A stretch of DNA of 64,000 nt from Candidatus Aquidulcis sp. (GCA_020723345.1 DYJA01000011.1:43349-107348), one strand, 5' to 3'; positions 18,269 to 60,942 are shown, counted from the stretch's first letter. The notes: a model not told the origin generated them from the letters alone. Translations and numbers: made by a program.

Positions 18269-18269
18269 G

Positions 18270-25235: not shown

Positions 25236-25428
25236 ATTGCGCAACCGCTACGTTAGGGTTAGATTTTTTGTTCAAGGGCGAACGACTTTCAAACCCAACC
25301 AAACAGCTGATTCAATGTTGGTGTTCATGCCACGATTCTATGGGGTGCCGTCGAAACCCTGAGATGTTCCTGATTTTCAGCCGGCATAGGCAAGTCCTAA
25401 ATAGCCGGTTAGGTGAGGAGATTGTCAA

Positions 25429-26088: not shown

Positions 26089-26145
26089 TCTGAAAACAGG
26101 ATTGCAGGCGCACAACGTTCATCAAATCCTCTGTGAGGGTGATTT

Positions 26146-30538: not shown

Positions 30539-30548
30539 GAATTACACA

Positions 30549-31568: not shown

Positions 31569-31569
31569 C

Positions 31570-34197
31570 ATGTTCAAATTGAATCGAATGATTGTCTGGG
31601 TAGTTTGTTTGGTAGCCAGCGTCAGCGCATTATTCCTAACGATGCAATTTGCGACGCTAGGCGCGTTTGCCGCGCCTTCAACCTGCAACGAATTGCAGCT
31701 GATCTTTCTGGTTGACCAAAGCGGCTCGATGCGTGGTAATTCTGCTCATCCCGTCGTGAACGATCCGTTGAAATTGCGTTTCGAGGGTCCCAAGCACGCC
31801 GTCGAACGAATTGGTATCTTGCGTTATACCCAGTATCCGACGATGACGGTGCGCTTTGCATTGGTCAATTTCGGTACCGCTGCCGAGGTCGGAATTGATT
31901 GGACCAGCATCGCAGCCGCCAATGATGCCCAATGGACGCAACAATGGGGCATGCTTAGCCAAGCATTGGCGCCGGGCAAATGGGACACAGCGGATATGGG
32001 TAACACTAATTTTGTCGGCGCGTTTGAAAAGGCAGGCGAATTATTCAACCGGCTGCCCCAGCAAATTGGAAATTGCCCAACCCGCGCGGTGATTGTCCTG
32101 ACGGATGGACGGCCGCAGCTCCCTGATCTCGGGTTCTCGATGCCGGATCATTTTGCCAAACTGCAGAAATTTGTAGATACGTCCATGCCCCTCTCCGCCT
32201 ACAATATTTATGTGATTGCAATGAGCCAGGATGCTTTTTGGAATGAAACGGAATCTTATTGGCTTAAGGTCACCGGCAATCAAAAGAAGGATAACATCAA
32301 GACCGGTCTCGTCAATGACGATAAGGAGATTGGGGACCGGTTTGCCAAAATTATCCAAGAGTGGCTGCCCAGACCGCTTCAATGCTTTGATCCGGCGCGT
32401 GGAACGATTATCGTACCGCCATTTCTTCAACAAGTGTCCTTCACGCTGTACAAAGCGACGAGTCAACCTAATCATTTACGGATCGAAGATGAGCGAGGCA
32501 TCATTGAACCATCTCGCACCGATATCAAGACAACCATAGAAGGGTTTAATGGTCCAATCGAAACGGTACGTGTGGTTGGTCCCTTGCCTGGCGTATGGCG
32601 GATCAAGACTAACCTCCCGGTAGAAAAATGCGATATCCAGATGTTACCTATTCCAGCAAATGGTAACCTCTTGACCCCCGCCGTCAACAGGGGCTCGTTG
32701 CGCCAATTCAGCCAGTTTGATGTTTCATTTCAAATTACCGATTCAGCAGGTAATCCCTTGCCGGAATATGGGCCTGCCTACCCACTTCAGATCAAGGCAA
32801 GCGTGAACGACGTCTCTGGCATCGATGTTCTCAATGCGTTGCCGGATGGCAAAAATAAATTTACGGCGCCTTATATTCCAATTGAACCGGGGGCGCATAC
32901 CATTGACCTGTTGGCTACTTCGCGGGATGCTGAAGGCAAGACGATCGAGATTGTGAAAAGGCAAATTGGCGCATTTACTATTGAACCAGTCAAGTTGACA
33001 GTATCCGCAGGACCTACTGCGGGCAGTCGCATTCAGCAATATGCGCCAATTTCAACTACGCTGGCGTTGGTGGCAGGGGCAGACAATAAATCTGTCACGA
33101 TCACCTTGCCGGTGAATATCACCGCTAATCTCTTCGTCGCAGATAAATCGCAATCCCTGCCACTGGTTGCCGGAACCGATGGTGCCTGGACAGGTACCGT
33201 GACTCCTCAGCAAACTGGCTTGCATCGAATCCAATACGCCGGTTCGGTCACTTTGTCCGATGGTACCAAAAAGGAACTAGGCAAAAGTGACATTTCGTTC
33301 AATGTTTCTGCCGCAACATTACTCAAACCGCAAGTCCTGAAGCCGGCTCAACCGGTTTTCGAAGGCACGAACTTTTTGGGTCAACCCAATGGCTTGGTCT
33401 TTGAAGTCCAGATTGTGGATGCCACCGGCAAGATGGTTGAGCCATCCCAAGTAGTTGAAGGTAGCAACGATCAGGTCTTCAAGTTAGGCGTCACCGATTC
33501 AAGCCGCAGAGATCGGAGTGCGGAGTTGGTCTTGCAGCGCACCGCACAACCCGGTGTCTATCGCGCCGAAGCCAAGAATTTTGGAGCGGATGATTACACG
33601 ATCCGGATCTTGCCTGCCGCCAATCTCAAGCCGGACTTTGTGTGGGGCGATAAAGCGTGGACCTATAATTACAAGGGCACGCTCAATATGGGCGTATTTG
33701 GCTTGTTGGCAATCGCCGGTCTGATCTTGTTGGATATTGGGCAGTGGGTCGGCCACACCATTGCGGCACGCCCGAATCCGTTCCGGCGCGGTACGCTTGT
33801 GATCGCGCGCCGCGAGGTTTCCGATCCTGACGCGCCTGCGTCTGAAAGAGACGTAGACGAGTCACTCAAAGTAATGTGGCAACGCGCCTTGCCGTCATCT
33901 TCCAATTTCGCGCGATTCCTGAACGGTTGGGCGTGGCGAGGTGTGATTCCCTGGCACCATCAAGAGTTTGAAAAACGTTTGAACATTCGCAAGATCGAAG
34001 TGCGGAATCTCGAAACGCAACAGTCACGCGGCAATCGCATCAGTGGCAAAGTTCAAGCGAAGGTGGTTTATTCGACCAAGGCAGGCACCGCCTCCAAAGA
34101 GTATAAATTATCGCGGGGCGGAGTTGAAAGTGCAGCTGAGCTGCCGCTGTTTGGCTACATTATGTACTTGCGCGATCCAAGGGCAAATCAAGAATAA
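31570..34197 (+). CDS. Secreted vWA-domain protein with Ig-like repeats, one C-terminal TM helix and a ~150-aa cytoplasmic tail
   Basis: Signal peptide. MIDAS LVDQSGSM (31714-31728). VIVLTDGRP. TM helix GVFGLLAIAGLILLDIG. Starts 1 nt after the upstream stop. Confidence 0.85.
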   Translation: MFKLNRMIVWVVCLVASVSALFLTMQFATLGAFAAPSTCNELQLIFLVDQSGSMRGNSAHPVVNDPLKLRFEGPKHAVERIGILRYTQYPTMTVRFALVNFGTAAEVGIDWTSIAAANDAQWTQQWGMLSQALAPGKWDTADMGNTNFVGAFEKAGELFNRLPQQIGNCPTRAVIVLTDGRPQLPDLGFSMPDHFAKLQKFVDTSMPLSAYNIYVIAMSQDAFWNETESYWLKVTGNQKKDNIKTGLVNDDKEIGDRFAKIIQEWLPRPLQCFDPARGTIIVPPFLQQVSFTLYKATSQPNHLRIEDERGIIEPSRTDIKTTIEGFNGPIETVRVVGPLPGVWRIKTNLPVEKCDIQMLPIPANGNLLTPAVNRGSLRQFSQFDVSFQITDSAGNPLPEYGPAYPLQIKASVNDVSGIDVLNALPDGKNKFTAPYIPIEPGAHTIDLLATSRDAEGKTIEIVKRQIGAFTIEPVKLTVSAGPTAGSRIQQYAPISTTLALVAGADNKSVTITLPVNITANLFVADKSQSLPLVAGTDGAWTGTVTPQQTGLHRIQYAGSVTLSDGTKKELGKSDISFNVSAATLLKPQVLKPAQPVFEGTNFLGQPNGLVFEVQIVDATGKMVEPSQVVEGSNDQVFKLGVTDSSRRDRSAELVLQRTAQPGVYRAEAKNFGADDYTIRILPAANLKPDFVWGDKAWTYNYKGTLNMGVFGLLAIAGLILLDIGQWVGHTIAARPNPFRRGTLVIARREVSDPDAPASERDVDESLKVMWQRALPSSSNFARFLNGWAWRGVIPWHHQEFEKRLNIRKIEVRNLETQQSRGNRISGKVQAKVVYSTKAGTASKEYKLSRGGVESAAELPLFGYIMYLRDPRANQE

Positions 34198-34234
34198 GGT
34201 TCTCACATCACCAGTCTTACAAAGGAGGTAGACT

Positions 34235-37200
34235 ATGGCGATCAAACCTGTACCCTCATTGATCATTGGGCTGGGTGGCACCGGCGTAACGGTGGCGACC
34301 TATGTCAAAAAGGACCTGCTCGAAATCAGCGAGACGGACGGCGTGCCAGCGGGTGTTCAGATTCTTGCCTTTGACACCGAAGCCACGAACCGTGTGCACG
34401 TAGGTGGCTGGGGCAGACCGCGCCGAACCGGCGAACGGCGCACCGGACCGGTGGAACTGGGACACGGCGAATATGTCCACATTGGCGGCAATGTCCTCGA
34501 TCTGGCGAAAGAAGTCGCCGAAGGACAGCATTACTATCTGGGAACTTGGTGGAACGCCAGCCAATATCTTGCCGAAAATTTACCGGCGGATTTGTGGCAC
34601 CTGAACAAAGGCGCGGGACAATTCCGACAATTTGGCAGAATGGCGCTCTTTCAAAACCGAGTGACCGTGACGAATATGCTGACTGCCGCAATGAATAGCA
34701 TTCGGCGGGGCGCGCCCGGCGCGACTGATTTGTACGTGCATATCACGGGCTCCTTCGTCGGCGGTACCGGCGCAGGGCTTTTTGTGGACATTGCGCACTT
34801 GGCGTCTGTCGTTGCCAAACAACAGAATCTGGACAAGGTGTCTGTGCGTGGGTATTTTGTGCTTGTAGACGCCTTTCTTGGCACACCCCAAGTGAAACTC
34901 GAAGACCCGCGCTTGAAAAGCACCTACCAAGCGCAAGCATACGCCTGCCTGCGCGAATGTAGCCGCTTGGTCTCGGCGACGGATTACGCGACCGGTTACC
35001 CAATGAATTATGCAGATGAAGGCGATCCCGAACTTTTGCGCGGTAGGATCACGAAACGCCCGTACGACGCGGTATATCTTTTCGATGGACATCGCATCTA
35101 TAATCCCCTCACGACTTCTCGGATTGAAGATGGGATTGCGCCCACGATTGCAGATGCCATCGTCGCGCACGTAGACGCCAAGTCCGGTGCCAAGTTTACC
35201 TCACACACGGTCAATTCGGATAAGCAACGCACGGCGCTCAAGATCCCAGCAGATATTCCCACTTTTGGCGCGTTGGGTACTTTTACATTCGTTCTGCCCA
35301 TCTTTCACATCGTCGAAGAATGGACGCACCGCCTCGCCAAAGAAGCATTGGACGAATTGCTCGTGCCAACCGATTGGTCGAAAGATACCGGCTTGCCGAA
35401 TTCGCCGTTAGCCACAAACAAACGCGGCGGGATGAAAGCAGAACCGCTTAACGATGGCGCGGACAAGGGACGCGAATGGTTGAGACGAAGTTCCCCAACC
35501 GCTTTCACCCAGGATTTGGGCGAACAGGGCGCGAGATACAGCAGATCAGCCACGCGCTCCGAGGTTGAGGGGGAAATCCGGAATCGCACCACCGAAGACT
35601 GGATCAAGTTGCTCAAGCCCGAAGATCAGTCCGTAATGACAAGCGACAACATCGAACGCGCGACGATTGTGCTGGAAAGCGATATTACAAAGGAAAAAGT
35701 CAAGCGCGGCGGGCAAATGGAAGGCAACGAATACTATGTCCATCCCAGCCCCGGCGGGAGCGATCGTGATCAAGCGGATCAGGTAGCAAATGAGGTGCGT
35801 CGGATCTTTAAAATTTTGATCGGCGAGGAAGATGACGACACCGGGCGTCGAAGCGGGGGACGCGTCAAGGTGACGCTCGATGAATTAAAAGCCACGCACA
35901 TCAAGAAATTCCGCACGCAACTGCGCGTACTAATCGAGGAAACCTTGAATGGTTTGAAGGGCGCGGACGCGTTCGAAGCCAAAGCAGGCAAACTCGGTTA
36001 TATGATCGCTTTTCTCCGCCAGGTGCGGGATGATTTGCAACAAGCGCAATTGGCAATCGAAAAGACCGAAGGCGCGCAGCGGTCTACGGGAACGAGCCGC
36101 CAACGGCAGACTGGAAGCCGACGGGAAGAATCCGAAACTCTGCTTAAGGAACTGATCGAGAAAATGCAAAAGGGCGGCGGGCTTTTCGGCGCAAATCGCA
36201 AAGAGTACATAGCCAAAGCCCAGCAGTACCTCCAAATCCTCAAAAGCGAAATTGCCGAGCGCGTCGCGTTTGAAACCGTGCGCGATCTGGTTCTAACGGC
36301 GGACAACACGCTCGCCGAAGTGAATGGCTGGGCGGAAGCGTTAGGACATCGGAATGTGAAAGAAGGCGGTGTTTATGCGCTGGTGCTTGAGGGGCGCGCG
36401 AATAACCAGCATGACCGGGAGCGCAACGCGGAAGCCCGAGTTCGCGAACAGGTCAGCGATTTGACCTATGAAAATGGTAAATACAGTGACTATGTCTCGC
36501 GGGGCGGGGTAGCGAATTCCCGAACGCAACTCAAGCAAATCCTAGGCGAATTGGCGTGGACCGCGCACATTGACGAAAATACGGGGCGGATCCGATTAGG
36601 GCTCAATTTGGGGGAAAAGGGAGAACAAGAATTCAGTTCGGAAAAGGGACAGAACATTGGCGCGGTGAATGGAAAAATATTTCTTGAGCGTTGCCGAGCG
36701 GTTTTCAAGCCGGCGTGGGACGATCTTTCCATTCTGCGTTACCTAATGGACAATTACGGTCCGGCGCGCCAGAAAACGATGGAGGATCTGGCAAAACTGA
36801 TTCATCAAAAAACCGGACCTCTGCTAGAGGTCCGCGGCGATCAACCCTTGCCCGCCAACTTTTTGCGCGTGAATTTGGAAAGTGTCGGCGAAGCCCAAGC
36901 GGGCTCCGATCAACAACAGCAAGCCCAAGCGCGCAGCGTGTTCATGCAACAACTTGCCGATGAGTTGGGGAGACTCAACCATGTTCAAGTTGAGCGAACG
37001 GTCATCGAAGATGGCAAACCCGAAACTTCCAAGTTTGTGGATTACGCCGACTCGATGGATCGCTTCAAGTTGGGGTTTGTCTACTTTAGCGAACTCAACC
37101 AACCCAAGAACATCGCGACTTTTAGCGGGGGCGTGAGCGACTATCGCGCGTATCCGGTAAAACAACGGACCTATTTACATATCTTTCCGGCGGAAGAGCA

Positions 37201-38239
37201 TACGGTTCGTTACGAAAGCCAACTGGCGCAGATGGCAATGGGTGACCAACGCCGTCCACAACGCCCGCGTGAGATCGAAGATCGCGTGGTCGTGCAATTG
37301 GAAGACCTGGCTCGTTTTCGCCTGATCGCGCATTGCTTGGCTTATGGCAACCCCAATTTTGATTGGGGGCAAGGTGTTAGGGAAACCGGCGCGTTACTCT
37401 ACGAGGATGTGCCGTCCAACAATCCACCGGGCGCAAACCCGGACAGCAAGGCAGTCTACCGTTTGATGGTTGAACCGACCGGTGTATCGCGGAATGGAAT
37501 ATTGGTCAACCCAATGACGAACAAGCCCGCCAGTCCCAAATATTGGGATTTGACCCAATTGGCTGAAATCCCCAGTCTCTTGGACGCGATCAACCAGTTC
37601 AACTACAAAAAACACGCAGTCGGCAATGTAGAGGATACGCTGGATGACTATCGCATCCAAACGACATTGGATAAAGCGATTGATGCCGATTGCGTGCGTC
37701 GGATTGCCAAGGGATTCCCGTGGCTGCCTCCTGCTGGGATGAGCAAGGATCAAGTACAGGAGGCGCAAAAGCGCGTGGCGCAGTATCTGCGGTACCAAGC
37801 CGAGGTCAAAGTATGGGAGACTCGATTGTTGTCACAAGACTATCGAGATGCGGTGATGCCAAGCACGCCGCCCAAAGCAGTCGCGCCTGAAATTCAACGC
37901 GAGGCGGATTTGCTCACGATGTTGATCCTCGTGCTGAACGAAGAAATCCGCACCCTGAATGGACAGATTGAACGATACGGAGGCGAGTGGGATTGGGCGT
38001 TTGCTGAACCGGAGGAAATTCAGCCGGAGCAAGTGCTCCCTCCGATGCCAGAGACGACTGTGCCTCAGGGCGTTACCTGTCCAAACTGCGGCACTAGCAA
38101 TTCGGAGGATGCGAACTTTTGCAAGAAATGCGGCGCGCAGTTAGGTGCAAAACTCGCCAAGTGTCCGAAATGCGGCAGAGAGTACGACTTGGCGGACACA
38201 AGTTTCTGCCCGAAGGATGGGAGTAAGTTGACGCCATGA
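34235..38239 (+). CDS. Giant tubulin/FtsZ-like (Pfam Tubulin_2-type) protein with helical body and C-terminal double zinc ribbon
   Basis: SD AAAGGAGG. T1-like SLIIGLGGTGVTV, ILAFDTE, T4/tubulin-signature-like ITGSFVGGTGAGLFVDIAHL. C-terminus CPNCG..CKKCG..CPKCG..CPKDG. Confidence 0.8.
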   Translation: MAIKPVPSLIIGLGGTGVTVATYVKKDLLEISETDGVPAGVQILAFDTEATNRVHVGGWGRPRRTGERRTGPVELGHGEYVHIGGNVLDLAKEVAEGQHYYLGTWWNASQYLAENLPADLWHLNKGAGQFRQFGRMALFQNRVTVTNMLTAAMNSIRRGAPGATDLYVHITGSFVGGTGAGLFVDIAHLASVVAKQQNLDKVSVRGYFVLVDAFLGTPQVKLEDPRLKSTYQAQAYACLRECSRLVSATDYATGYPMNYADEGDPELLRGRITKRPYDAVYLFDGHRIYNPLTTSRIEDGIAPTIADAIVAHVDAKSGAKFTSHTVNSDKQRTALKIPADIPTFGALGTFTFVLPIFHIVEEWTHRLAKEALDELLVPTDWSKDTGLPNSPLATNKRGGMKAEPLNDGADKGREWLRRSSPTAFTQDLGEQGARYSRSATRSEVEGEIRNRTTEDWIKLLKPEDQSVMTSDNIERATIVLESDITKEKVKRGGQMEGNEYYVHPSPGGSDRDQADQVANEVRRIFKILIGEEDDDTGRRSGGRVKVTLDELKATHIKKFRTQLRVLIEETLNGLKGADAFEAKAGKLGYMIAFLRQVRDDLQQAQLAIEKTEGAQRSTGTSRQRQTGSRREESETLLKELIEKMQKGGGLFGANRKEYIAKAQQYLQILKSEIAERVAFETVRDLVLTADNTLAEVNGWAEALGHRNVKEGGVYALVLEGRANNQHDRERNAEARVREQVSDLTYENGKYSDYVSRGGVANSRTQLKQILGELAWTAHIDENTGRIRLGLNLGEKGEQEFSSEKGQNIGAVNGKIFLERCRAVFKPAWDDLSILRYLMDNYGPARQKTMEDLAKLIHQKTGPLLEVRGDQPLPANFLRVNLESVGEAQAGSDQQQQAQARSVFMQQLADELGRLNHVQVERTVIEDGKPETSKFVDYADSMDRFKLGFVYFSELNQPKNIATFSGGVSDYRAYPVKQRTYLHIFPAEEHTVRYESQLAQMAMGDQRRPQRPREIEDRVVVQLEDLARFRLIAHCLAYGNPNFDWGQGVRETGALLYEDVPSNNPPGANPDSKAVYRLMVEPTGVSRNGILVNPMTNKPASPKYWDLTQLAEIPSLLDAINQFNYKKHAVGNVEDTLDDYRIQTTLDKAIDADCVRRIAKGFPWLPPAGMSKDQVQEAQKRVAQYLRYQAEVKVWETRLLSQDYRDAVMPSTPPKAVAPEIQREADLLTMLILVLNEEIRTLNGQIERYGGEWDWAFAEPEEIQPEQVLPPMPETTVPQGVTCPNCGTSNSEDANFCKKCGAQLGAKLAKCPKCGREYDLADTSFCPKDGSKLTP

Positions 38240-38383
38240 GTTGGAGGATGCGTTCCACTATAAGCCAACTGCCATCAGCATTGTCAGAATAGCAAGAATC
38301 CGTTACTCACAAGAGGATTGGCATGTGGGAAAATAGAATTGAATGATCACATGCCAGTCCGATTGGAACACTGCGAGGTGTCC

Positions 38384-40690: not shown

Positions 40691-40726
40691 ATAAACGAAT
40701 CAAGAATAACTTGATAGGAGCCTTTT

Positions 40727-41686
40727 GTGCCTACTGGTATTCCCGATATTTCTCAAATGGTACTTCGTGAAATCTTGGCAGGTAAGTTAGTACCCTTTTT
40801 AGGAGCAGGTGCTAGTCTGTGTTCACGCTCCAGAACTTCAAGTTCTTCTAAACCAGGTACGTATCCTCCCAGTTCACAGGATCTATGTAATTCCTTGGCG
40901 CACAGGTTTGCTTACCCAAGTGGATCTGAAACACCTAATTTGATGCATGTATCACAATATGCCGAAGTCTTTAACGGACGGGTAGCACTATATGACGAAT
41001 TGCACAAGCATTTCGAACCCAATTATCAACCGACTGTACTACATTACTTTCTTGCTAATCTTCGCCGAACACTAATTAGGAAACATTTGCCTTTTCATCC
41101 AATGCTTATCGTTACAACAAACTATGACACGATGCTTGAGAGTGCATTCGATAAAGCGAACGAACCCTACGACCTAGTGTATTACACGGCAGATGGAAAA
41201 GACAAAGGGTTGTTCAAACATATTCCATACGGTGGCAAGGAGGAAACCATTTATAAATTGAACGAATATGATAAATTTCCTGTAAAATACGGCGAGATCC
41301 AACGCACAATTATCCTAAAGATGCATGGGCACGTGAATAGAGCCGAAAGCGCAAAGGATAGCTATGTTATAACAGAGGATCATTACATCGATTATTTGGC
41401 CTATAATGACAAAGTAAGTCCCCTGCCAGCAATACTATGTCAGCAATTAAAGCTTAAACATATTCTTTTTTTGGGGCATAGTTTAAATGATTGGAACCTT
41501 CGCGTTATTTTACGCCGTGTCTGGGCAGATGTTGAATTTGACTCTCGGTCATGGGCGATTCAACTTGATCCTACAGCCATTGATCAAGAATTGTGGAGGA
41601 GACGCAACGTGATTGTTTTTCCAAGCGATCTAGTTTCATTTGTTGCCAATCTCAGAGCTTCTTTCAGCGGATACAAACCCGGGTGA
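40727..41686 (+). CDS. SIR2-like (SIR2_2) domain protein, predicted NAD-consuming effector
   Basis: SD TAGGAG then GTG 40727. LVPFLGAGAS, IVTTNYDTMLE, ILKMHGHV (catalytic His), ILFLGHSLNDWN. Confidence 0.85.
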   Translation: MPTGIPDISQMVLREILAGKLVPFLGAGASLCSRSRTSSSSKPGTYPPSSQDLCNSLAHRFAYPSGSETPNLMHVSQYAEVFNGRVALYDELHKHFEPNYQPTVLHYFLANLRRTLIRKHLPFHPMLIVTTNYDTMLESAFDKANEPYDLVYYTADGKDKGLFKHIPYGGKEETIYKLNEYDKFPVKYGEIQRTIILKMHGHVNRAESAKDSYVITEDHYIDYLAYNDKVSPLPAILCQQLKLKHILFLGHSLNDWNLRVILRRVWADVEFDSRSWAIQLDPTAIDQELWRRRNVIVFPSDLVSFVANLRASFSGYKPG

Positions 41687-41691
41687 AAATT

Positions 41692-44600
41692 ATGTCCATT
41701 GCACATACCATAGCGAAACCATATAAAGGGCTAGCGCCTTTCTCTGAATCTGACGCGAATATTTTTTTTGGTCGCGAGCAAGAATGTGAGGTGGTTGCTG
41801 CCAACCTACTAACTTCGCGTTTCACTGTTGTTTATGGTGCAAGTGGTGTTGGTAAAAGTTCGCTTTTACGTGCTGGCGTTGTCCATTATCTAAGTACGCT
41901 TGCACAAAAGCGTTTGCAGAGTAGCACTGAAGAACGTAATACTCCGGAATTCATTGTTATTGTTTTTGATAGGTGGTCGGGAAATCTAGTTGGTGGTCTA
42001 TCAGAGCAAATTAGACAAGTACTATCGCCTTTTGTACAGTCCTATGATCTTGGATTCCAGCCAAACGATTCTATTCCAGATTTGGTAGACAAGTGGAAAC
42101 AAGCAACGCGGTCTACACTTCTTGTAATTCTAGATCAATTTGAAAGCTACTTGGCTTATCATCCTGAGGTAGATGAGTTTACCACTCAGTTATCTGACGC
42201 CATACGAACAGAAGGGCTCGGGATAAACTTCTTGATTTCGATCCGTGAGGACTCACTGGCAAAATTGGATCGATTTGAGGGTTATATTCCCAATCTCTTT
42301 GATAATAATATACGCATCAATCGGCTCGGTCGTACACCCGCGAAAGAAGCAATTGAAAACCCAATTCGCAAATTCAATGAAATAAACAAAACTGAAATTC
42401 GAATTGAGCCGGAACTTGTTGAAACCGTGTTAAATGAAGTGACCGCTGGTAAGATTATGGGGGTAGTTGAAGGTTCCAGATTCTCTATTTCCAGCAAGGA
42501 TGAGGTGGATGCCCCTTATTTGCAACTGGTAATGGAACGACTGTGGAAAACAGAAATAGAGGCTGGCTCCGATGTATTGCGTTTGAAAACGCTTCACGAA
42601 GTAGGTTATGCCGAGTCTATTGTCAGAAAACACCTTGACGATAAGATGGAGGAATTAGATACGCCAGAGCAAAATATTGCCGCGCAAATCTTTCGCTATC
42701 TCGTAACACCATCAAGAGCGAAGGTTGCCTATTCAGCGAGTGATCTTGCTGCTTACACCAACTTGAAAAAAAATGAAATTACTCTAGTGCTCGAAAAACT
42801 GTCGAGTACTGATTCAAGAATTGTCCGTTTGCTTTCTCCTCTATCTAATCAACATCCTGCGATCCGATATGAGATTTTTCACGATGCTCTTTCGGCTGCG
42901 GTTCTAGATTGGCGAGCAAGATTCGTTCAGAAACAAAACGCGTATATTCAAAAACAGAGAAGTATTGCTTTTGCGCGTGAGCTAGCGGCAAATTCAATTT
43001 CCCAGATGCAACAAGATCAGGATCTATCAGTTCTTTTAGCTCTTGAGGCACTCCGTATAGAGGAAATTCCCCAAGCCTACAGTGCTCTCAGACTGGCAGT
43101 AGTGCGTTCCTATATGCGATATATTATTCGTGATCACCTCAGACCCGTGAAATGTGTAGCCTACAGTCCTGATGGACAATATTTGCTGACGGCTAGCGAT
43201 GATTGCACCGCGCGGATCTGGACAGCTCGGTATCGCCCAGTAAATTTGATGCAACATGAAAGCCCTGTGCTCGGCGCAGTGTATAGTCCTGATAGCAAGT
43301 TTATCTTGACTTTTTCAAGCAAGCGCGCATTCGTATGGACTAATAAAGGAAACCTATCACACGAATTGAAAGGACATTCTGAAGATATTACCTGTGCTAC
43401 GTTTAGTGCTGATGGTCAATTTGTCGCTACGTCCAGCAAGGACATGACTGCAAGGGTTTGGACTACTAAAGTAGGAACACCGATCGCTCAAATGGTAGGT
43501 CACTCGCGCTCAGTTAATTGTATTACCTTCAACCCTGACGATGAATTTGTTGCAACCGGTAGCGATGATGGTATGGTCAAAATATGGGAAGCTAGTAGCG
43601 GTAAGCTTCGAACAGAATTACGTGGACACGAAGGGCCTGTTGACCACATTTCGTACTACCCGAAGGGCATTGCAGACAACGAACTTCTTCTTACTTCAGG
43701 ACAGGATAATATTGCGCGAGTATGGAATACCAGGTCAGGTCTGTGCCTTCAAGCATTACGTGGCCATACCGGTATTATTACTAGTTCACTATTTAACAAC
43801 GATGGCACTCGTATTTTGACAGCCAGCGAAGATGGCACCGTGAGAATTTGGGATACCCATATGGGAATGCTCCTGGCTGTTTTGCGTGGGCATACAGATC
43901 CCGTGCTTGACGTTCTTTTCACTCCCGATGGTAAATTCATAATTACAACCAGCGGCGACGAAACAAGCCGGGTGTGGGATGCCATAATTGGTGATTGCAT
44001 ATTGGTATTGAGGGGGCATCGCGGGGCAGTAAGAACGGCAACTGTTAGTGGAAAGGGCAACATCATCGTAACTGGCGGTGAAGACGCAAAGGTGAGGATT
44101 TGGCAGTCACACCTAATGCGTGCCCCTCTCGAGCTTAGGGGATATGAAGATCAATTGCTCGGTATTTCTTTCGGCCACGACAATAATTGTGTTGTTGCTT
44201 TTGGCACAAATGCAATTGCTCGAACATGGGAGGTCACCTCAGGCAAGTCGCGTTTAGTACTTGATGGACATGAATCGCGATTACGTTCTGTGTCCTTCAG
44301 CTACCATAACAACCAGATTTTGACGTCTAGCGATGATGGGACAGCGAGATTGTGGAGTGCTACTACAGGGCAGTCCTTGGGAACTTTGCGTGGACATCTT
44401 GGATCAGTGTACAACGCGCTTTTTAGCCCAGATGATAGATTGATAGTAACTAGTGGAGTCGACAAAACTGTACGAATTTGGGATTTGGACAAGAAGGACT
44501 TGAATTCCCAGATATTGGTGCAAGGGGATAATATCAGTTGCCTTTCCATTAGTCATAATGGTAAATTTCTGGCTGTTGCTCGTGGCAACCAAAGTGCCGT

Positions 44601-45234
44601 TGTGGAGATCTGGAATCTGGTTGGGCGGCGATGTACAGCAAAGTTGTCAGGTCACAATTTAACAATTTATGGTGTCAATTTTAGTTACAATGACGAGTAT
44701 CTAGTAACTGCGAGTGATGATAGCAAAGTGTGTGTTTGGGATGTGTCTACTGGGAAATGCCTGAAAAATTTATCTACTCACAAGAGTTGGGTCAGACAAG
44801 CCATATTTAGTCCAGACAACAAATATATTGCAACAGCCGGTGGGGACAATACGGCCAAAATCTGGGACGCGGAAACTGGCCAAGTTACTGTCGATGTGCT
44901 ACACGCAGCTCCGGTGAATACTGTAGCATTTAGCCCCAATGGACAACTTGTTGTTTCGGCAAGTTTGGACAATACTGTGAAATTATGGGATGTTTTGTAT
45001 GGTTGGCTACTTGAAGAGTTTCACGGACATACTAAACCTGTGCAGTGTGTTGCATTTAGTCCAGATGGAAACTATGTCGCCACAGCAAGTCTGGATGGGA
45101 TAGGACGATTATACTCAATCAAAGAATATCAGCCCGAACAGATTCGAACATTGGCTCGTGAGAAAATATCTAGAAACAAAAAAGAGCTCACTCCTGCTGA
45201 AAGAAGAAGATATTTGCACGACTGGGTAACTTGA
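41692..45234 (+). CDS. STAND-class NTPase (NACHT/nSTAND-like) with about 16 WD40 repeats
   Basis: ATG lies 5 nt after the SIR2 stop. YKGLAPFSESDANIFFGRE. Walker A VVYGASGVGKSS. Walker B LLVILDQFE. Repeated GH..V..v.FSPDG..laTaS.D.T.r.W units. Confidence 0.9.
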   Translation: MSIAHTIAKPYKGLAPFSESDANIFFGREQECEVVAANLLTSRFTVVYGASGVGKSSLLRAGVVHYLSTLAQKRLQSSTEERNTPEFIVIVFDRWSGNLVGGLSEQIRQVLSPFVQSYDLGFQPNDSIPDLVDKWKQATRSTLLVILDQFESYLAYHPEVDEFTTQLSDAIRTEGLGINFLISIREDSLAKLDRFEGYIPNLFDNNIRINRLGRTPAKEAIENPIRKFNEINKTEIRIEPELVETVLNEVTAGKIMGVVEGSRFSISSKDEVDAPYLQLVMERLWKTEIEAGSDVLRLKTLHEVGYAESIVRKHLDDKMEELDTPEQNIAAQIFRYLVTPSRAKVAYSASDLAAYTNLKKNEITLVLEKLSSTDSRIVRLLSPLSNQHPAIRYEIFHDALSAAVLDWRARFVQKQNAYIQKQRSIAFARELAANSISQMQQDQDLSVLLALEALRIEEIPQAYSALRLAVVRSYMRYIIRDHLRPVKCVAYSPDGQYLLTASDDCTARIWTARYRPVNLMQHESPVLGAVYSPDSKFILTFSSKRAFVWTNKGNLSHELKGHSEDITCATFSADGQFVATSSKDMTARVWTTKVGTPIAQMVGHSRSVNCITFNPDDEFVATGSDDGMVKIWEASSGKLRTELRGHEGPVDHISYYPKGIADNELLLTSGQDNIARVWNTRSGLCLQALRGHTGIITSSLFNNDGTRILTASEDGTVRIWDTHMGMLLAVLRGHTDPVLDVLFTPDGKFIITTSGDETSRVWDAIIGDCILVLRGHRGAVRTATVSGKGNIIVTGGEDAKVRIWQSHLMRAPLELRGYEDQLLGISFGHDNNCVVAFGTNAIARTWEVTSGKSRLVLDGHESRLRSVSFSYHNNQILTSSDDGTARLWSATTGQSLGTLRGHLGSVYNALFSPDDRLIVTSGVDKTVRIWDLDKKDLNSQILVQGDNISCLSISHNGKFLAVARGNQSAVVEIWNLVGRRCTAKLSGHNLTIYGVNFSYNDEYLVTASDDSKVCVWDVSTGKCLKNLSTHKSWVRQAIFSPDNKYIATAGGDNTAKIWDAETGQVTVDVLHAAPVNTVAFSPNGQLVVSASLDNTVKLWDVLYGWLLEEFHGHTKPVQCVAFSPDGNYVATASLDGIGRLYSIKEYQPEQIRTLAREKISRNKKELTPAERRRYLHDWVT

Positions 45235-45280
45235 CTCCAAAATCCTATCAAGCAATTTCCGACCGAACCGGAGGATCACC

Positions 45281-48200
45281 ATGTCCCGTAACCTATCTCA
45301 CTTGAGCAAATTCATCGCATTGTTGTTCGTTGGCGCGCTGTTGCTGGTGTCTGCCAGCACGGCGTTTGGGCAAACCAATTCCGCTGTCACCTTTCAGCGC
45401 GTAGTCGCGCCTAATGTGCTTCCGTACGGGCAGGGCGAATTTACCGTAACCCTCACGGTGAGCGGCAACAGCGCCGGGTGCGGCACCCAAGTCGCGCGTA
45501 AACCACTAGACATTGTATTGGTGATTGATCGCTCCAGCAGTATGGGGAACTTGTTAGGTTTTCTTGGCGGCAAATCCAAGCTGGACAGCGCCAAAGAAGC
45601 CGCCAAAGTCTTTCTCTCCAAAGTCAATCTGGGGAACGACAAGGTCGCGCTGGTTCAATTCAACGAAGCGGCTAATTTGGCTCAACCATTGGATACCAAT
45701 CGTCAGACATTGGACAAGGCGATTGATGGCTTGGTCTCGTCCGGTAACACCAGTCTTGATCGTGGGGTTGACGTGGCGCGCCAGGAACTTAAAAGCGCGC
45801 GCCGTCGTTCAAACACCAATGGTGTGATCATCCTGCTTTCCGACGGCGAAAGCGATGAGACGAGCGCGCGGAATGCGGCTGATGCGGCGAAGAGGGATGG
45901 CTTGCGCGTGATTACAATTGGTTTGGGGAGTGGCGCGAATCAAAATTTGTTGCGTTCACTGGCTTCTCAATCCAGCGACTATTACTATTCGCCGGACACG
46001 AATAATTTGACTTCGATTTATGAAAAGATCGCCGAGAGTGTCAAGCAATTCGTCGCGGCAACTGATCTGACGCTCAAGCATACGATTGAAGTCAGCGCAT
46101 TTCAGATTGTCCCCAACTCAATCTCGCCAGCCCCCGCGACGATTTCCGTGGACACCATCACTTGGAAACTCGATTCGCTCGGCGATACCCAGCAGACTTT
46201 TACGTACAAACTCAAACCTATCGCGCAGGGGAATTTATTGATTGATCGAGGTGACACACTCACTTTTACGCAGTGTGAAAAGGCGCCTAGTACTATCTCC
46301 GAAAAGCCGGGTTTGCCCGTGCAAGTGCTCGCGCCGACGGCGACTGCCACGCGTCCTCCAACGTCCACGCGGACGGCGACCCCCTTGCCTACTCCAACAC
46401 CCACTTTCAATGAAATGGTTCAACAAACAACCTGTGATTATGGCACGAGTTTGCCGCCGTGGTTGCTCTGTCTCGTGCCGTTGCTGATGTTGTTCTTCAT
46501 CGTGTACTTCTTGCGAATTGTAAGGGAATTGCAAGAAAAGCGCAAACCGTGTCCGCTGATTTGGTGGCTTTTGCTCCCGCTCGCGTTCATTTTGCTTTGC
46601 TTGATCCTAAACCAACTCTTGAACGCGGCATGTGTCGGCGGCGAATCAGTTTATTTCTGGAAAATTGATTCGTTTGGAGGTTCGGGTATTTACGTCAGTA
46701 GTCGTGACGGTGTGCGTCCTGCCCTGCCCTTCCGCGAAGTGAATTCGAGCAGCGGGTGCGTGGCGTGCCACGCCGTCTCCTCGACAACGCATCGGATCGC
46801 GGCGATTAGCGGCGGCGGCGTTGGCCCCGTCGTCGTCTATGGCTTGGACGGCAAACGGATTGATATACCCGGCGTGACAGGATCGTTCTTGAATTGGTCG
46901 CCGGATGGAACCAAACTTGCTATTTCAACAGATCGCCGGCAAATCGTGATTATGGATGCGGATGGCGGCACGATCACTCCACTCGCCGGCGCAAGTGAAA
47001 GTAATGTGGCGCAGTTGATGCCGGCGTGGTCACCCGACGGAACTACGATTGCCTTTGTGCGCTCGAACGATCCTTCTGGAACCTATCGCGCGGATTCGGC
47101 TTCGGATATCTATACTGTGCCCGCTACTGGTGGGGTTGCCAAGCCGCTGCCCGGCGCAAGCGGCAGAGGATTCAACTACTATCCTGCCTATTCGCCGGAT
47201 GGCAGATGGATCGCTTTTACGCATCATATTAGCGGCACGACGACGTACTCGGATCCCTACGCCGAGATCTATATGATTCCGGCGGAAGGCGGCACACCGA
47301 TTCGGCTTGCCGCGAATGATACCCAAGACGGCAGACGCTTGACCGGCATCAGCAACTCGTGGCCCACCTGGTCGCGCGACGGTCAAACGCTGGCGTTTAA
47401 CAGCAAGCGCAACGGCAACCAGTACGATATTTTCACCACGCGCATCAACCCGGACGGAACTTCGGGTCCGGCAATGTTGTTGTCCAGCGCGGCAGATGGA
47501 CGCGCGTTCGAGCATTTGCCATTCTGGGGCGAGCCCCCAAAAATGGATCCATGGGCGGGAGTGTTGGGGCTTTGGCCGTGCCTCATTCCATTCCTGCTGA
47601 TTCCGATCCTGTACTTGCTTTGCTGGTACTTCACGCGTCGTCGGATCGACATTATTGAGGTAGATGCAACCCCTGTTCGTCCAAGACCGGGACCTTTGCC
47701 ACCACTTGTGCTTAATCCTACTTGGCAAGTTGCGCCCGCGCTCATCATCGGTGTAGGCGGAACCGGACGCTGGGTGTTGACGCATCTGAAAAAGTCTTTG
47801 CTTGATGGCGGAATCGGCAAACTGCCGCCGGGTGTGCGCTTTGTTCTGCTTGATACTTCGGAAGAAGAAACGAACACGCTGATGGACGCTAACGGTAAAC
47901 CGCAAGCGGTCGAATTTGCCGGCGTGCGGTTGGAACCGAGCGAAATGTTGCTCCTGCAGGATAGTCTCGAAAATGTCGTGCGAACAATGCGCGCCAACCC
48001 AAATGTCGAGCCGGCATTGCAAGGTTGGCTTCCGACCGAACGCTACGCTCAACTACCCGCCGGACAGGTCAACCTTGCGGAAGGTACGCGCGGACGCCGC
48101 CCGATGGCGCGCGCCGGTCTGATAAAGAAAATGCTCGGCGAAGCCGAACGGCAGACTGGTTCGACGACGGACGCTAAACAGATTTGGAATCTGCTTGCCA

Positions 48201-50629
48201 ATGGCGCGCGCGATGCGCTTGACGGTCGCCAAACGCGCGTGATTGTGATCGGTTCGCTCGCGGGTGGGATGAGCGGCACGCTATTCGATCTAGCGCACTT
48301 GGCGCGTTTAGCGGGACAGCAAACTATTCCCGCCGGTGGCACTGTCACAGTGGAAGGATACTTGGCGACTGCCGGCGTATTCAATCAAACACCCGGCAAT
48401 TCCAGCCAGCGTCAGATCAACACGTTTGCGGCAATGCGCGAATTGCAGCGCTTCCAACTCGCGCAAGGCAGAGCGTATCCGATGGCATATCGCGCCAATG
48501 CCAAGTTGCCGCTGGATAGCGTATGCGACCGGCAATTGTTCGACGATCTCTTTTTCTTTGGCACGGGGGGACTAGCAGAGAGCGGACAGGACAAAGATAC
48601 CCAACCTTGGGCAACGACGTTTGCCGCGATGGCAGATATCATTGCATTTCGCTTGGATCGCGGGACTGGCGCGGGAGGCGAAGGTGACTATCGTCGGCAG
48701 ATCCAAGCCCAGGGCGCGATCTATCAACAACAACGCAATGCGGCGTTCATCGGCGGCGCGGGAAGTTTCGTCTATCGCTTGCCGATGAAAGATATTGTGG
48801 ATCAAATCAAACTGCGCTGGGCGCGCCAATTGTTGCACGAGTTTATCCAAGGCACGAATGTGCCCAAGCAACCCGGCACACCTGCGCCGAACGCCGCCGA
48901 AGACGCCGCACGCTTTTTGCAAGGCGATTATGGTTGCGGCACACTCCCCGGTGGAATGAATGTGATCGAATCGCTTTGTCTTGGTTCGCGTCCCAGCGTG
49001 GACCGCGCGGATTTGAATCGCTTGCCCGAACCAGATAGCGTAGCCAATAGTTTCCGCACATATTTGCAACATGCGCTCAAGTTGATTTTGAATGGCGCGA
49101 AAGCGAGCAAGACAGTGCCGGTAGGACGTGTCCGGTTTGCTTTGCAATTCCTCGATCAAGTGGCGCACTATCTTGCGCAAGCGGAGAAGGTGGCCGGCGA
49201 AGCGCAAGAATCGGCGAGGTCACAAGAGAGTGCCGCCGCGTATGAACGCGCGCGCAAGATGGCGGCGCAGTGGCATGCTGAAACGCAACTAGCCAGCAAT
49301 AGCTTGCGTAAACAACGTGAGTTGCTCGAAGGCGCGGCAGGCGCGCCCGGCAAGCCGCCCCTCATTGGCGTCTATCAGCGTGTCGCCGATTTGGAAACCC
49401 AAGCCCGCCATCGCCGCGCGCAAATGGATCGCGTGGCAGTGCGCGAGTACTTGTGGTGGCGCGTCCGCGATGTCACACAATCACTGGATGATCCAAACAA
49501 TCGGATTGATCTGGCGGATGAATGGTACCATCTTGCGGCGGACAAGCACATCCAGGAATATCACGAACGCTTTTATTGGGAATTCTCGCCCGAAGGCGCA
49601 CCGTGTCTGTCACTCGTTACTTTCGAGGGAAATGCAATGACGCTAGTTCCCGAAACATCGGAAAAGTTTGTCCAAGAGGTATTGCGACTGGGCAATCACG
49701 TTGTGCGTGAAATGTGGGAAACGGTGACCCTGGCGGATATAATGTCCGGTCGTCAAATGATCGCCGATCAAGAACAATCGGCGCACACGACCGCGCGAAT
49801 GTGGGTGACGGCGATGCCTCACCTCTTGTCGCGGCAAAAGACAAATATCTGGAATGCCGCGTTTGGCATTCCACAAATTGCACGCGCGCGAGCACAAGAA
49901 CTGGTCAATGTGTTTGCCAATCTCGGCGGTGTGCAACAACAGATCCCCGGCAGTCTCAATCCGTGCCCAACCAGCATAGTGCCTTTGACCGATCAGTACG
50001 CCACTGTGTTGATCCGCACGCTTGATCTCGTCGCGGTTGCGGATGTGCCGGAAATGGACGACGCGCGTCGGGTATACGAACAATCTATGCGGACGACCGT
50101 TGCCGGTGCAGAGGGCGCAGAAATGCAAACTGTCTTTGCGGCGGAACGCAACGCGCTGACATTCGAAAGACGCCTGCCCGATCCCAATATTTTCCGTCTG
50201 CCGATCCGCCAGTTCCACCCGCTCGTGGTGATGGCGTTGGAAAATCAGCCGCGTGTGCGCTTGTTCGGCTTGGCGTTTGCGGCGGGCTGGGTGCGCGTGC
50301 CTGCGCAAGACGGCGCGATCACGCTCCACGTGCCCGTCGGCGCGACGTACACCTTGGCGGAAAAGAAAGCCGAAGTCACACTCGCGCCTGAAGTAGCCAC
50401 GCTCTACAATTTCTGTCAACACGGCGAATCCGCCGCGATTGACGCCATTCGCGCCGCAACCGATCAGCCCGACGAAGCGACGATTCAGGCATGGCAAGAG
50501 TACTACGCGCAATGGCACGATTGGCAAGGCGCGCCACCACTGGCGAACCAACCGCGCGAATTGCAAGACCTGGGCGCGTTGGCGGGCTTGGTCGTGTTCG
50601 ACAAACTCAAAGCGTATTTTGGACAATAG
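45281..50629 (+). CDS. 1782-aa fusion protein: signal peptide, vWA, 2 TM helices, PD40/TolB-like propeller (with a CxxCH motif), 1 TM helix, tubulin-like domain and helical body
   Basis: MIDAS LVIDRSSSMG and ILLSDGES. TM pairs at about 46450-46620 and 47555-47640. WSPDGTKLA, AWSPDGTTIAF and YSPDGRWIAF repeats. ALIIGVGGTGRWV, FVLLDTSEE, VIGSLAGGMSGTLFDLAHLA. The body is collinear with 34235-38239. Confidence 0.8.
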   Translation: MSRNLSHLSKFIALLFVGALLLVSASTAFGQTNSAVTFQRVVAPNVLPYGQGEFTVTLTVSGNSAGCGTQVARKPLDIVLVIDRSSSMGNLLGFLGGKSKLDSAKEAAKVFLSKVNLGNDKVALVQFNEAANLAQPLDTNRQTLDKAIDGLVSSGNTSLDRGVDVARQELKSARRRSNTNGVIILLSDGESDETSARNAADAAKRDGLRVITIGLGSGANQNLLRSLASQSSDYYYSPDTNNLTSIYEKIAESVKQFVAATDLTLKHTIEVSAFQIVPNSISPAPATISVDTITWKLDSLGDTQQTFTYKLKPIAQGNLLIDRGDTLTFTQCEKAPSTISEKPGLPVQVLAPTATATRPPTSTRTATPLPTPTPTFNEMVQQTTCDYGTSLPPWLLCLVPLLMLFFIVYFLRIVRELQEKRKPCPLIWWLLLPLAFILLCLILNQLLNAACVGGESVYFWKIDSFGGSGIYVSSRDGVRPALPFREVNSSSGCVACHAVSSTTHRIAAISGGGVGPVVVYGLDGKRIDIPGVTGSFLNWSPDGTKLAISTDRRQIVIMDADGGTITPLAGASESNVAQLMPAWSPDGTTIAFVRSNDPSGTYRADSASDIYTVPATGGVAKPLPGASGRGFNYYPAYSPDGRWIAFTHHISGTTTYSDPYAEIYMIPAEGGTPIRLAANDTQDGRRLTGISNSWPTWSRDGQTLAFNSKRNGNQYDIFTTRINPDGTSGPAMLLSSAADGRAFEHLPFWGEPPKMDPWAGVLGLWPCLIPFLLIPILYLLCWYFTRRRIDIIEVDATPVRPRPGPLPPLVLNPTWQVAPALIIGVGGTGRWVLTHLKKSLLDGGIGKLPPGVRFVLLDTSEEETNTLMDANGKPQAVEFAGVRLEPSEMLLLQDSLENVVRTMRANPNVEPALQGWLPTERYAQLPAGQVNLAEGTRGRRPMARAGLIKKMLGEAERQTGSTTDAKQIWNLLANGARDALDGRQTRVIVIGSLAGGMSGTLFDLAHLARLAGQQTIPAGGTVTVEGYLATAGVFNQTPGNSSQRQINTFAAMRELQRFQLAQGRAYPMAYRANAKLPLDSVCDRQLFDDLFFFGTGGLAESGQDKDTQPWATTFAAMADIIAFRLDRGTGAGGEGDYRRQIQAQGAIYQQQRNAAFIGGAGSFVYRLPMKDIVDQIKLRWARQLLHEFIQGTNVPKQPGTPAPNAAEDAARFLQGDYGCGTLPGGMNVIESLCLGSRPSVDRADLNRLPEPDSVANSFRTYLQHALKLILNGAKASKTVPVGRVRFALQFLDQVAHYLAQAEKVAGEAQESARSQESAAAYERARKMAAQWHAETQLASNSLRKQRELLEGAAGAPGKPPLIGVYQRVADLETQARHRRAQMDRVAVREYLWWRVRDVTQSLDDPNNRIDLADEWYHLAADKHIQEYHERFYWEFSPEGAPCLSLVTFEGNAMTLVPETSEKFVQEVLRLGNHVVREMWETVTLADIMSGRQMIADQEQSAHTTARMWVTAMPHLLSRQKTNIWNAAFGIPQIARARAQELVNVFANLGGVQQQIPGSLNPCPTSIVPLTDQYATVLIRTLDLVAVADVPEMDDARRVYEQSMRTTVAGAEGAEMQTVFAAERNALTFERRLPDPNIFRLPIRQFHPLVVMALENQPRVRLFGLAFAAGWVRVPAQDGAITLHVPVGATYTLAEKKAEVTLAPEVATLYNFCQHGESAAIDAIRAATDQPDEATIQAWQEYYAQWHDWQGAPPLANQPRELQDLGALAGLVVFDKLKAYFGQ

Positions 50630-55479: not shown

Positions 55480-55671
55480 CTGCCGAGTCCTTGAAAATTG
55501 ATCGCACTTTACTCAGGGCGTGGAATGAATGAAACGCTGCGTTCTGCACCCTTTGCCGTAACTCCACAATACTTTTCCCCGCTATCTCACACGCGCTACG
55601 CCAGATCGGGGTGAATACTCCAACGAATCATCACAATTTGCAAGGTGTCATCATGGTCAAAGGATTTCGTA

Positions 55672-58377: not shown

Positions 58378-58401
58378 AGTTTTGTGACACGCGAGGTAAC
58401 A

Positions 58402-60939: not shown

Positions 60940-60942
60940 GTG

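Follow-up and report, generated by a model that had tools for sequence, protein, structure and literature searches.

The 64,000-nucleotide stretch of DNA analysed here, referred to as the window (Candidatus Aquidulcis sp., GCA_020723345.1 DYJA01000011.1:43349-107348), carries two sets of genes in which a vWA membrane protein is combined with a tubulin-like protein of the FtsZl1 family. Within the tubulin/FtsZ superfamily, FtsZl1 is the branch that has diverged the most. It was defined by Makarova and Koonin in 2010, and the family was already listed in Chloroflexi (PMC2875224). An earlier note made from the sequence of this DNA had described three open reading frames (ORFs), at 31570-34197, 34235-38239 and 45281-50629, as the split and the fused state of one module. 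All three ORFs were confirmed at these coordinates on the plus strand, and the domain order described for them was confirmed by Pfam, by hydropathy and by an AlphaFold2 (AF2) model of residues 1-800 of the third. We designated the first two genes vWA-A and Tub-A (pair A) and the third fused B (pair B), the tubulin-like part of which is Tub-B.

Composition of the two pairs

The vWA-A gene (31570..34197) encodes 875 aa with a vWA domain, a filamin-like beta region, one predicted transmembrane (TM) segment and a predicted cytoplasmic tail. Pfam assigned residues 44-180 to VWA_2 (E = 1e-7), and the metal-ion-dependent adhesion site (MIDAS) motif is intact (DQSGS at residue 49). Hydropathy gave one N-terminal hydrophobic segment (residues 7-25) and a second at residues 705-723 (33682..33738; Kyte-Doolittle peak 2.14), which is the single TM segment and is directly followed by the arginine-rich flank AARPNPFRRGTLVIARRE. 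Within residues 266-700 Pfam returned no match at E<=5, and filamin repeats were matched weakly by a 14-sequence vWA-A profile (E 3e-4 to 1e-3); the vWA domain, TM segment and tail reported in the earlier note stand, while its immunoglobulin (Ig)-like repeats find weak support. The 152-aa tail (33739..34194), predicted to be cytoplasmic, keeps its length and several positions (P737, G741 and L774) in 14 orthologues and is a candidate docking site for Tub-A. Pfam found no family in this tail at E<=5. An FHA-like fold had been considered for it because of the kinase/phosphatase pair in the operon, and was dropped, with no profile match in its favour.

Tub-A (34235..38239) is a soluble FtsZl1/Tubulin_2 protein of 1334 aa. 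Its tubulin-like domain (34259..35350, residues 9-372) matched PF13809 with E = 5e-35 and 121.8 bits against a cut-off of 27, and is followed by a helical and alpha/beta body and by a C-terminal double zinc ribbon (Pfam, residues 1279-1327).

The fused B gene (45281..50629) encodes 1782 aa, in the order predicted signal peptide, vWA domain, beta-sandwich, TM1, TM2, PD40 propeller, TM3 and Tub-B. A signal-like hydrophobic segment lies at residues 11-29, and the vWA domain (45509..46024, residues 77-248; PF00092, E = 9e-26), predicted to face outward, has the MIDAS motif DRSSS. No Pfam family was found in the beta-sandwich at E<=5. TM1 (residues 396-414) and TM2 (residues 425-443) make up a hairpin (46466..46609, residues 396-443; Kyte-Doolittle peaks 2.62 each) around the charged loop RELQEKRKPC, which holds four lysines or arginines (K/R). 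The TolB-like PD40 beta-propeller (46646..47530, residues ~456-750; PF07676, E = 4e-19), also predicted to face outward, precedes TM3 (47561..47617, residues 761-779; Kyte-Doolittle peak 2.22), after which RRR and a Pro-rich linker of about 35 aa lead into the tubulin-like domain of Tub-B (47741..48835, residues 821-1185; PF13809, E = 1.5e-27, 97.3 bits against the same cut-off) and the Tub-B body (48836..50626). The AF2 model of residues 1-800 (predicted local distance difference test score, pLDDT, 79.7) gave the parts in the order of the sequence calls, namely a signal helix, an alpha/beta vWA domain, the beta-sandwich, a disordered Pro/Thr linker, a helical hairpin, the propeller and a final helix. 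In pair B, the vWA and tubulin-like parts are one polypeptide with three predicted TM segments.

Homology and nucleotide signatures of Tub-A and Tub-B

The earlier note had called the two tubulin-like bodies collinear, and had quoted the stretches FTFVLPIFHIVEEW and SFVYRLPMKDIVDQ as an example. This was borne out by pairwise alignment of Tub-A with the tubulin-like part of fused B, in which BLASTP found 27% identity over 415 aa (E = 1e-17), a region that covers the quoted pair. An hhalign comparison of an A-type profile (20 sequences) with a B-type profile (11 sequences) gave a probability of 100% and E = 6e-82 over 920 columns (A 4-1187 and B 40-998). Since the alignment has this span and significance, far beyond chance, the Tub-A and Tub-B bodies are regarded as collinear along their length.

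With 71 sequences as input, AF2 modelled residues 1-1200 of Tub-A (pLDDT 90.2; predicted TM-score, pTM, 0.81) as an FtsZ-like core (about residues 8-400), long helices (residues 542-731) and an alpha/beta region up to residue 1200. This agrees with the FtsZl1 layout, in which an FtsZ-like domain precedes a long helical or coiled-coil stretch and a globular C-terminal domain. Searched against the Protein Data Bank (PDB) with Foldseek, the N-terminal domain of this model matched FtsZ, tubulins and TubZ at probabilities of 0.99-1.00; for FtsZ (4u39, 5mn5 and 4m8i) the TM-score relative to the target was 0.42-0.45. No FtsZ or tubulin chain was found in the PDB at E<=1 by the 20-sequence Tub-A profile, and Pfam returned no match of the tubulin-like proteins to PF00091, FtsZ_C or Tubulin_C. 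The relationship of Tub-A to FtsZ and tubulin is visible only by comparison of the modelled fold. Foldseek also likened the Tub-A body to the helical bundles of BDLP, ClyA and XaxA, at insignificant probabilities of 0.1-0.3, and these matches were not used as evidence.

Among 71 A-type sequences, the nucleotide-binding motifs T1 (GxGG[TS]G), T3 (GAG) and T4 (SxxGGTGAG) are essentially invariant, and they read GLGGTG, GAG and GGTGAG in Tub-A. The GAG motif is lost in 103 B-type sequences, in which the T4 position reads [S/D]-L-A-[G/D]-[G/D]-[M/V/F]-S-[G/A] (GGMSG in the window). Across these two sets the FtsZ/tubulin-type nucleotide signature is satisfied by Tub-A and not by Tub-B. Because the signatures are kept in A and lost in B, Tub-A looks like a competent GTPase, and Tub-B like a degenerate paralogue built into the membrane.

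Tub-A resembles FtsZ, tubulin and TubZ in its N-terminal fold and in T1 (GGTG), T3 (GAG) and T4 (GGTGAG). It differs from FtsZ and tubulin in the missing PF00091 match, in large inserts between T1 and T3 and in an extra body of about 800 aa, and one paralogue is membrane-integral. FtsZ is tethered to the membrane by separate proteins, FtsA, ZipA and SepF.

Predicted topology and ectodomain of fused B

To apply the positive-inside rule, K/R were counted in 20 B-type proteins of both the fused and the split form. The means were 4.15 for the TM1-TM2 loop (about 18 residues) and 3.30 for the 15 residues after TM3, against 0.9-1.2 for the predicted outer flanks (Wilcoxon p = 8e-5 and 7e-4 versus the inner segments, n = 20). 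With three TM segments in the chain, the vWA domain and propeller of pair B would therefore face outward and the tubulin-like part would be cytoplasmic, and the charge bias supports this placement. The topology proposed in the earlier note is supported for fused B; as a rule for the whole family it fails, given relatives with a cytoplasmic vWA domain. The junction formed by TM3 and the Pro-rich linker is conserved in homologues. Side by side with the hairpin, a Cys before TM1 and a Cys after TM2 (window positions 46421-46465 and 46610-46654) are kept in most of the 20 homologues; the pair is compatible with an outer-face disulfide clamping the ends of the TM hairpin.

Foldseek superposed the modelled vWA domain of fused B on those of ANTXR2 (CMG2) and TEM8 (ANTXR1) with TM-scores of 0.84-0.88, and matched integrin I domains as well. 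The modelled N-terminus also matched the pilus tip adhesins SpaC, PitA, Mfa5 and GBS104, in which a vWA domain is combined with Ig-like domains, and resembled the vWA chains of ArnAB (8s05_A/B). For the propeller model, the TM-score relative to TolB (4pwz) was 0.55. In these models the ectodomain folds are of the ligand-binding receptor or adhesin type.

Pairs A and B are paralogous parts of one conserved operon

A scan with an A-type alignment, one genome per species, returned 76 loci (given here as L numbers where they must be told apart), mostly from Anaerolineae and other Chloroflexota, and gene order was derived by comparing the ORFs of each locus with domain pieces of the window proteins. 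The order is helical proteins of the 26146 and 28577 types, a metallophosphatase, vWA-A, Tub-A, vWA/PD40/Tub-B and a protein of the 50708 type (Ser/Thr kinase), and the operon is conserved in L002-L045 and L080-L082. A vWA gene adjoins Tub-A upstream in 25/26 loci with upstream sequence. Long-type Tub-A loci with at least 5 kb of downstream sequence have a second tubulin-like gene downstream in 23 of 27 cases.

The arrangement is laid out gene by gene in L002, a metagenome contig, where (as in L003) a vWA-Ig gene like 31570 is followed by a Tubulin_2 gene like 34235, with 30% identity over 1330 aa. In L002 an 837-aa vWA-PD40 gene corresponds to fused-B residues 26-780 (34% identity, E = 2e-119) and a 1187-aa Tubulin_2 gene to fused-B residues 948-1738; the next gene is like the N-terminus of 50708. 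Because both pairs co-occur in a fixed order in other genomes, 31570/34235 (A) and 45281 (B) are, on these gene-order and alignment data, paralogous parts of one operon system, and not the split and fused states of a single module as had been proposed. The membrane and ectodomain halves of vWA-A and fused B have no detectable pairwise similarity (best E = 1.5) and differ in make-up, with a filamin-like region and one TM segment in A and a beta-sandwich, a propeller and three TM segments in B.

The remaining operon genes lie on the same strand. The first conserved gene (26146..28620) encodes an 824-aa helical protein without a Pfam family; homologues occupy the same operon position in L004, L005, L011 and L080, and a homologue search with residues 1-450 returned the in-genome paralogue alone. 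The second helical protein (28577..30538; about 650 aa, start codon uncertain) has homologues upstream of the phosphatase gene in L004, L005, L007 and L011, and in some loci the two types form a single ORF of 1470-1790 aa. A calcineurin-like metallophosphoesterase follows (30465..31568; Pfam Metallophos, PF00149, E = 6e-10), and in about 15 loci its counterpart lies directly upstream of the vWA-A gene. As listed, this ORF begins with TTG and overlaps the preceding gene. Because the Pfam domain begins at residue 29 and orthologues have about 310-340 aa, the true start is probably the ATG near 30549 (MYIALISDIH). The last conserved gene (50708..54406) encodes a Ser/Thr kinase of divergent Hanks type (residues ~1-260), which continues in a helical extension some 970 aa long. 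A 14-sequence profile of the kinase matches PknB at 1e-18, with K47, E64, D147 and D166 invariant, and in about 20 loci the gene comes after the B gene. Gene 54469 had no Pfam match. A promoter and terminator scan of 25000-44900 gave counts within the shuffle range and no informative plus-strand terminator between operon genes.

Split, fused and variant forms across genomes

The cytoplasmic part of B was compared by phmmer with 1.84 billion representative proteins, giving 674 hits, and the best 150 of these were classified. The vWA..PD40..Tub fusion was found in 59 of the best 150, with exactly three hydrophobic segments between vWA and Tub in 50 of the 59 fusions. The same 150 also contained 21 PD40..Tub and 8 vWA..Tub proteins, 5 tubulin-like proteins with an inserted vWA domain, 14 unfused or fragmentary B proteins and 28 A-type proteins, all unfused. 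Among the operon loci, one ORF of 1800-2355 aa encodes the whole of B in L005, L008, L010-L013, L016, L017, L023, L024, L027, L032, L033 and L045. Fused B was found at no fewer than 14 loci in GTDB genomes and in dozens of 50%-identity clusters, and in the three closest relatives, with Tub-A identities of 80%, 60% and 38%, it measures 1782, 1789 and 1789 aa respectively. The fusion described in the earlier note is genuine and conserved, and it is the dominant form of B; A, which the note took for the same module, was never seen fused to vWA-A in the material surveyed.

Split B is the minority form (L002/L003, L019 and L049), with a vWA-PD40 gene of 835-950 aa followed by a Tub-B gene of about 1200 aa. 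In the Tub-B proteins of this form (L002:9041-12631, L019:5577-9254 and L049:5227-8850), the tubulin-like domain is interrupted, immediately ahead of the T4 strand, by a vWA domain that has an intact MIDAS but no TM segment. The two kinds of domain can thus also share one side of the membrane. The split-form vWA-PD40 protein has a short acidic tail, TLxVEVxDG, after TM3. This tail is a possible MIDAS ligand that would replace the covalent link.

Other architectures recur. A second vWA domain follows TM3 in L016 and L045, of which L045 belongs to Longilinea arvoryzae; two proteobacterial relatives combine vWA and Tub without a TM segment between them, and shorter fused forms have a single TM segment at this place. 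A stop-free ORF of 3518 aa at L004:9962-20515 (Ca. Chloroploca mongolica, NZ_SIJK02000002.1) reads Tub-A, TM, vWA, two TMs, PD40, TM and Tub-B, and joins Tub-A to the B protein rather than to vWA-A. It would place both tubulin-like paralogues in one chain with a topology that is still coherent, and a sequencing error is possible. In two loci of Aggregatilineales/Anaerolineaceae (L017:19205-23128 and L023:19230-23048), a third tubulin-like gene lies directly after fused B and encodes TM, PD40, TM and Tub, with no vWA domain detected.

An insertion in the operon and its surroundings

Within the window the operon is split between Tub-A and fused B by three genes on the plus strand (38318..45234), which encode a KAP NTPase with a C-terminal FGE-sulfatase domain, a SIR2_2 protein and an nSTAND1 NTPase with about 12 WD40 repeats. 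Clear PADLOC matches were confined to the inserted KAP (QatA/PifA-like) and SIR2_2 (ThsA-like) genes; for the STAND-WD40 gene they were marginal or fell in the repeat region. GC content at third codon positions is 0.36-0.45 for the insertion genes versus 0.52-0.62 for the operon genes. In L080 this slot is occupied by four unrelated genes without an assigned family and in L081 by two, and it is nearly empty in L082. No direct repeats of 8 nt or longer flanking 38240-45280 and no integrase beside the insertion were found. From its composition and this variable occupancy we read the insertion as an acquired block in a variable slot.

Downstream, and with an uncertain link to the operon, a plus-strand gene (55645..57585) combines DUF4062 (PF13271, E = 2e-21) with a paralogue of the 26146 helical region. 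Its C-terminal part has 58% identity to 26146 residues 5-447, and the paralogous stretches include 26417-26716 and 56483-56782. The gene looks like a recent in-genome duplication by which an effector domain was attached to an operon-type helical module. DUF4062 is a TIR-like NADase family reported from the antiphage system 'Swarozyc' (bioRxiv 10.64898/2026.05.01.722283). The outer parts of the window (1-23500 and 58384-63453) are rich in conflict, mobile and envelope genes, among them an HsdM methylase (4224-5864), a TPR-CHAT protein (14996-18346) and an IS4 transposase (21206-22639), all three on the minus strand, a PA14-crystallin-amidase_3 protein (12060-14576), a separate PD40 protein (58384-60024) and an M23 peptidase (60925-63453).

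Discussion

The alignments and conserved gene order identify A and B as old paralogous pairs, each made of a MIDAS vWA protein predicted to span the membrane and a tubulin-superfamily protein with a body of about 800 aa. Our preferred explanation, to which we give a probability of about 60%, is that the region encodes one conserved multi-gene FtsZl1 system in which membrane vWA proteins are linked to tubulin-like proteins. In the mechanism proposed with it, the vWA membrane proteins would serve the tubulin-like proteins as anchors and ectodomain sensors. Tub-B would be a membrane-integral anchor or nucleator, probably non-catalytic, and the soluble, putatively GTP-competent Tub-A would be recruited to Tub-B, to the vWA-A tail of about 150 aa, or to both. 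Binding of an envelope or external ligand outside might in this way be coupled, in either direction, to tubulin-like assembly inside, with the kinase and phosphatase setting the state of the system and phosphorylation acting as a gate. The link of integrins or anthrax-toxin receptors to the cytoskeleton is our working analogy. Candidate outputs are envelope or membrane remodelling, adhesion, or surveillance.

Several points weigh against this explanation. No fusion of Tub-A to its own vWA-A protein was found in the material surveyed, and the physical link within pair A is accordingly drawn by analogy. The earlier note had taken the fusion to mean that the vWA and tubulin-like proteins act as a physical complex; in pair B the fusion does argue for a functional and physical link, in agreement with the published operon association (PMC2875224), whereas for pair A the Rosetta-stone argument rests on paralogy, A itself being never fused to vWA-A. 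Cytoplasmic vWA domains fused to or inserted in the tubulin-like domain occur in L002, L019, L049, L016, L045, L053 and L057, so an outward vWA domain is not universal in the family. The TM and signal-peptide calls are based on hydropathy and charge counts, and the fold matches of Tub-A are moderate (TM-score 0.42-0.45, Foldseek E about 1e-2). Makarova and Koonin found no T6-H7 elements in FtsZl1 (PMC2875224), and the literature searched contains no experiments on FtsZl1 proteins, later papers only citing the family.

A more far-reaching version, which we hold to be doubtful, sees an outside-in receptor-cytoskeleton machine. Here A and B would form a hetero-assembly templated by B, loosely like gamma-tubulin or alpha/beta pairing, triggered through the vWA, Ig-like and propeller ectodomains, gated by phosphorylation and possibly recruiting an NADase for surveillance or immunity.

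The best-surviving alternative, though unlikely in our judgement, is membrane remodelling or vesicle formation, in which deformation of the cytoplasmic membrane would fall to the tubulin-like proteins, with the vWA proteins as mere membrane-associated accessories. Such a role was proposed for FtsZl1 in 2010 (PMC2875224), and a Tub-B tethered by three TM segments would suit membrane shaping. The weak likeness of the helical body to BDLP and ClyA/XaxA points the same way, but these structural resemblances are not significant and were left unused; moreover, the receptor-like ectodomains, the intact MIDAS and the kinase/phosphatase pair point to ligand binding and signalling, and no vesicle or compartment phenotype is known. 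Remodelling overlaps with our preferred explanation rather than excluding it.

An envelope-surveillance or anti-phage system, with ectodomains that sense phage or damage and a tubulin-like platform that recruits the TIR-like NADase through a 26146-type adaptor, seems to us as doubtful as the outside-in machine. It draws on gene 55645, in which DUF4062 is joined to a copy (58% identity) of the protein encoded first in the operon, on the slot with its KAP, SIR2 and STAND genes, which in relatives contains different, variable cargo, and on the HsdM, TPR-CHAT and transposase genes nearby. Defence genes, however, often insert randomly into permissive sites. PADLOC-DB 2.0 gave no match for vWA-A, Tub-A, fused B, the kinase, the phosphatase or the 26146 protein, and for the 28577 protein a marginal LmuB match only (E = 0.0026). 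No other locus showed the DUF4062 gene in its flanks, the cargo of relatives received no defence annotation (PADLOC none), and the operon looks vertically conserved within a phylum.

Redundancy, in which one module is present twice, split as 31570+34235 and fused as 45281, with each duplicate working alone, appears somewhat less probable still. Both sets do contain vWA, TM and Tubulin_2 parts, and their tubulin-like bodies are homologous along the whole length. Yet both occur in fixed order in one operon at most loci, their ectodomain halves differ in architecture and have no detectable sequence similarity, and an orthologous split form of B itself was found in other genomes. A also keeps the nucleotide signatures lost in all 103 B sequences, and a division of labour is therefore favoured over redundancy. 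Finally, although adjacent split vWA-PD40 and Tub-B genes do exist, we reject as almost certainly wrong the idea that the 1782-aa ORF arose from an error of assembly or sequencing (a frameshift or a missed stop codon between neighbouring genes), since a fused ORF of near-equal length with a conserved junction recurs in independent assemblies at 80%, 60% and 38% identity, in at least 14 GTDB genomes and in dozens of 50%-identity protein clusters.

The core association of vWA with FtsZl1 was already known, because shared operons were reported in 2010: most predicted FtsZl1 operons hold a vWA gene, often with a signal peptide or TM segment, together with protein kinases (PMC2875224). The window fits this description, with a pair of PF13809 proteins, an adjacent vWA gene with an intact MIDAS and a predicted signal peptide and TM segment, and a Ser/Thr kinase; the GTPase and OmpA genes also described for FtsZl1 operons (PMC2875224) were not seen in it. 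Kinase-FtsZl1 fusions and one TM-fused archaeal protein were reported in that paper, and no vWA fusion (PMC2875224). The vWA-FtsZl1 fusion, its three-TM topology, two paralogous FtsZl1 genes per operon, a signature-degenerate B type, the PD40 propeller and the metallophosphatase partner go beyond that account (PMC2875224). The headline link of vWA to FtsZl1 is not new, and the fused proteins already stand in public databases, unremarked. We did not find described, in the literature that our search returned, the A/B duality, the transmembrane fusion as the dominant form of B, the degeneracy of B, or the PD40 and metallophosphatase partners.

Likenesses to other systems are partial. Like integrins, ANTXR1 and ANTXR2, the two pairs would combine a MIDAS vWA domain, predicted by charge statistics in pair B to face outward, with Ig-like or propeller domains, a TM segment and a cytoskeletal-type partner, to which the fusion shows the link; this is a functional analogy only. 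The partner here belongs to the tubulin superfamily instead of being actin and is covalently attached in pair B, and since homology is shown for the vWA fold only, we do not file the pair as an integrin or ANTXR member. The TerY-P triad and the Sulfolobus ArnA/ArnB modules reportedly combine vWA proteins with a kinase and a phosphatase. The window operon likewise has genes for a Hanks kinase and a protein phosphatase in addition to vWA genes. Unlike in the TerY-P triad, the phosphatase is of the Metallophos type and not PP2C, the vWA domain is predicted to be extracytoplasmic and tubulin-like proteins are central; no FHA domain was found. The propeller resembles TolB of the Tol-Pal system in its PD40 repeats, its predicted envelope-facing position and its superposition (TM-score 0.55), but lacks the TolB N-terminal domain, has no Tol-Pal genes nearby and lies between TM segments of a larger protein.

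Sixteen years after FtsZl1 was described, the searchable literature gives no function for it. When the family was proposed, the main objection in the published review came from G. Jekely, who argued that a periplasmic vWA protein and a cytoplasmic FtsZ-like protein cannot form a complex and suggested signalling or transport instead (PMC2875224). The conserved three-TM fusion answers this objection, for the vWA proteins span the membrane (as predicted) and in one pair the vWA protein is covalently joined to the tubulin-like protein. The old prediction for FtsZl1 is thereby sharpened and made experimentally approachable, and the A/B duality, the confident Tub-A model and a defined set of kinase, phosphatase and helical partners give testable hypotheses and natural constructs. 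Coupling of a receptor to a tubulin-like protein, if true, would be a prokaryotic analogue of the links between adhesion receptors and the cytoskeleton.

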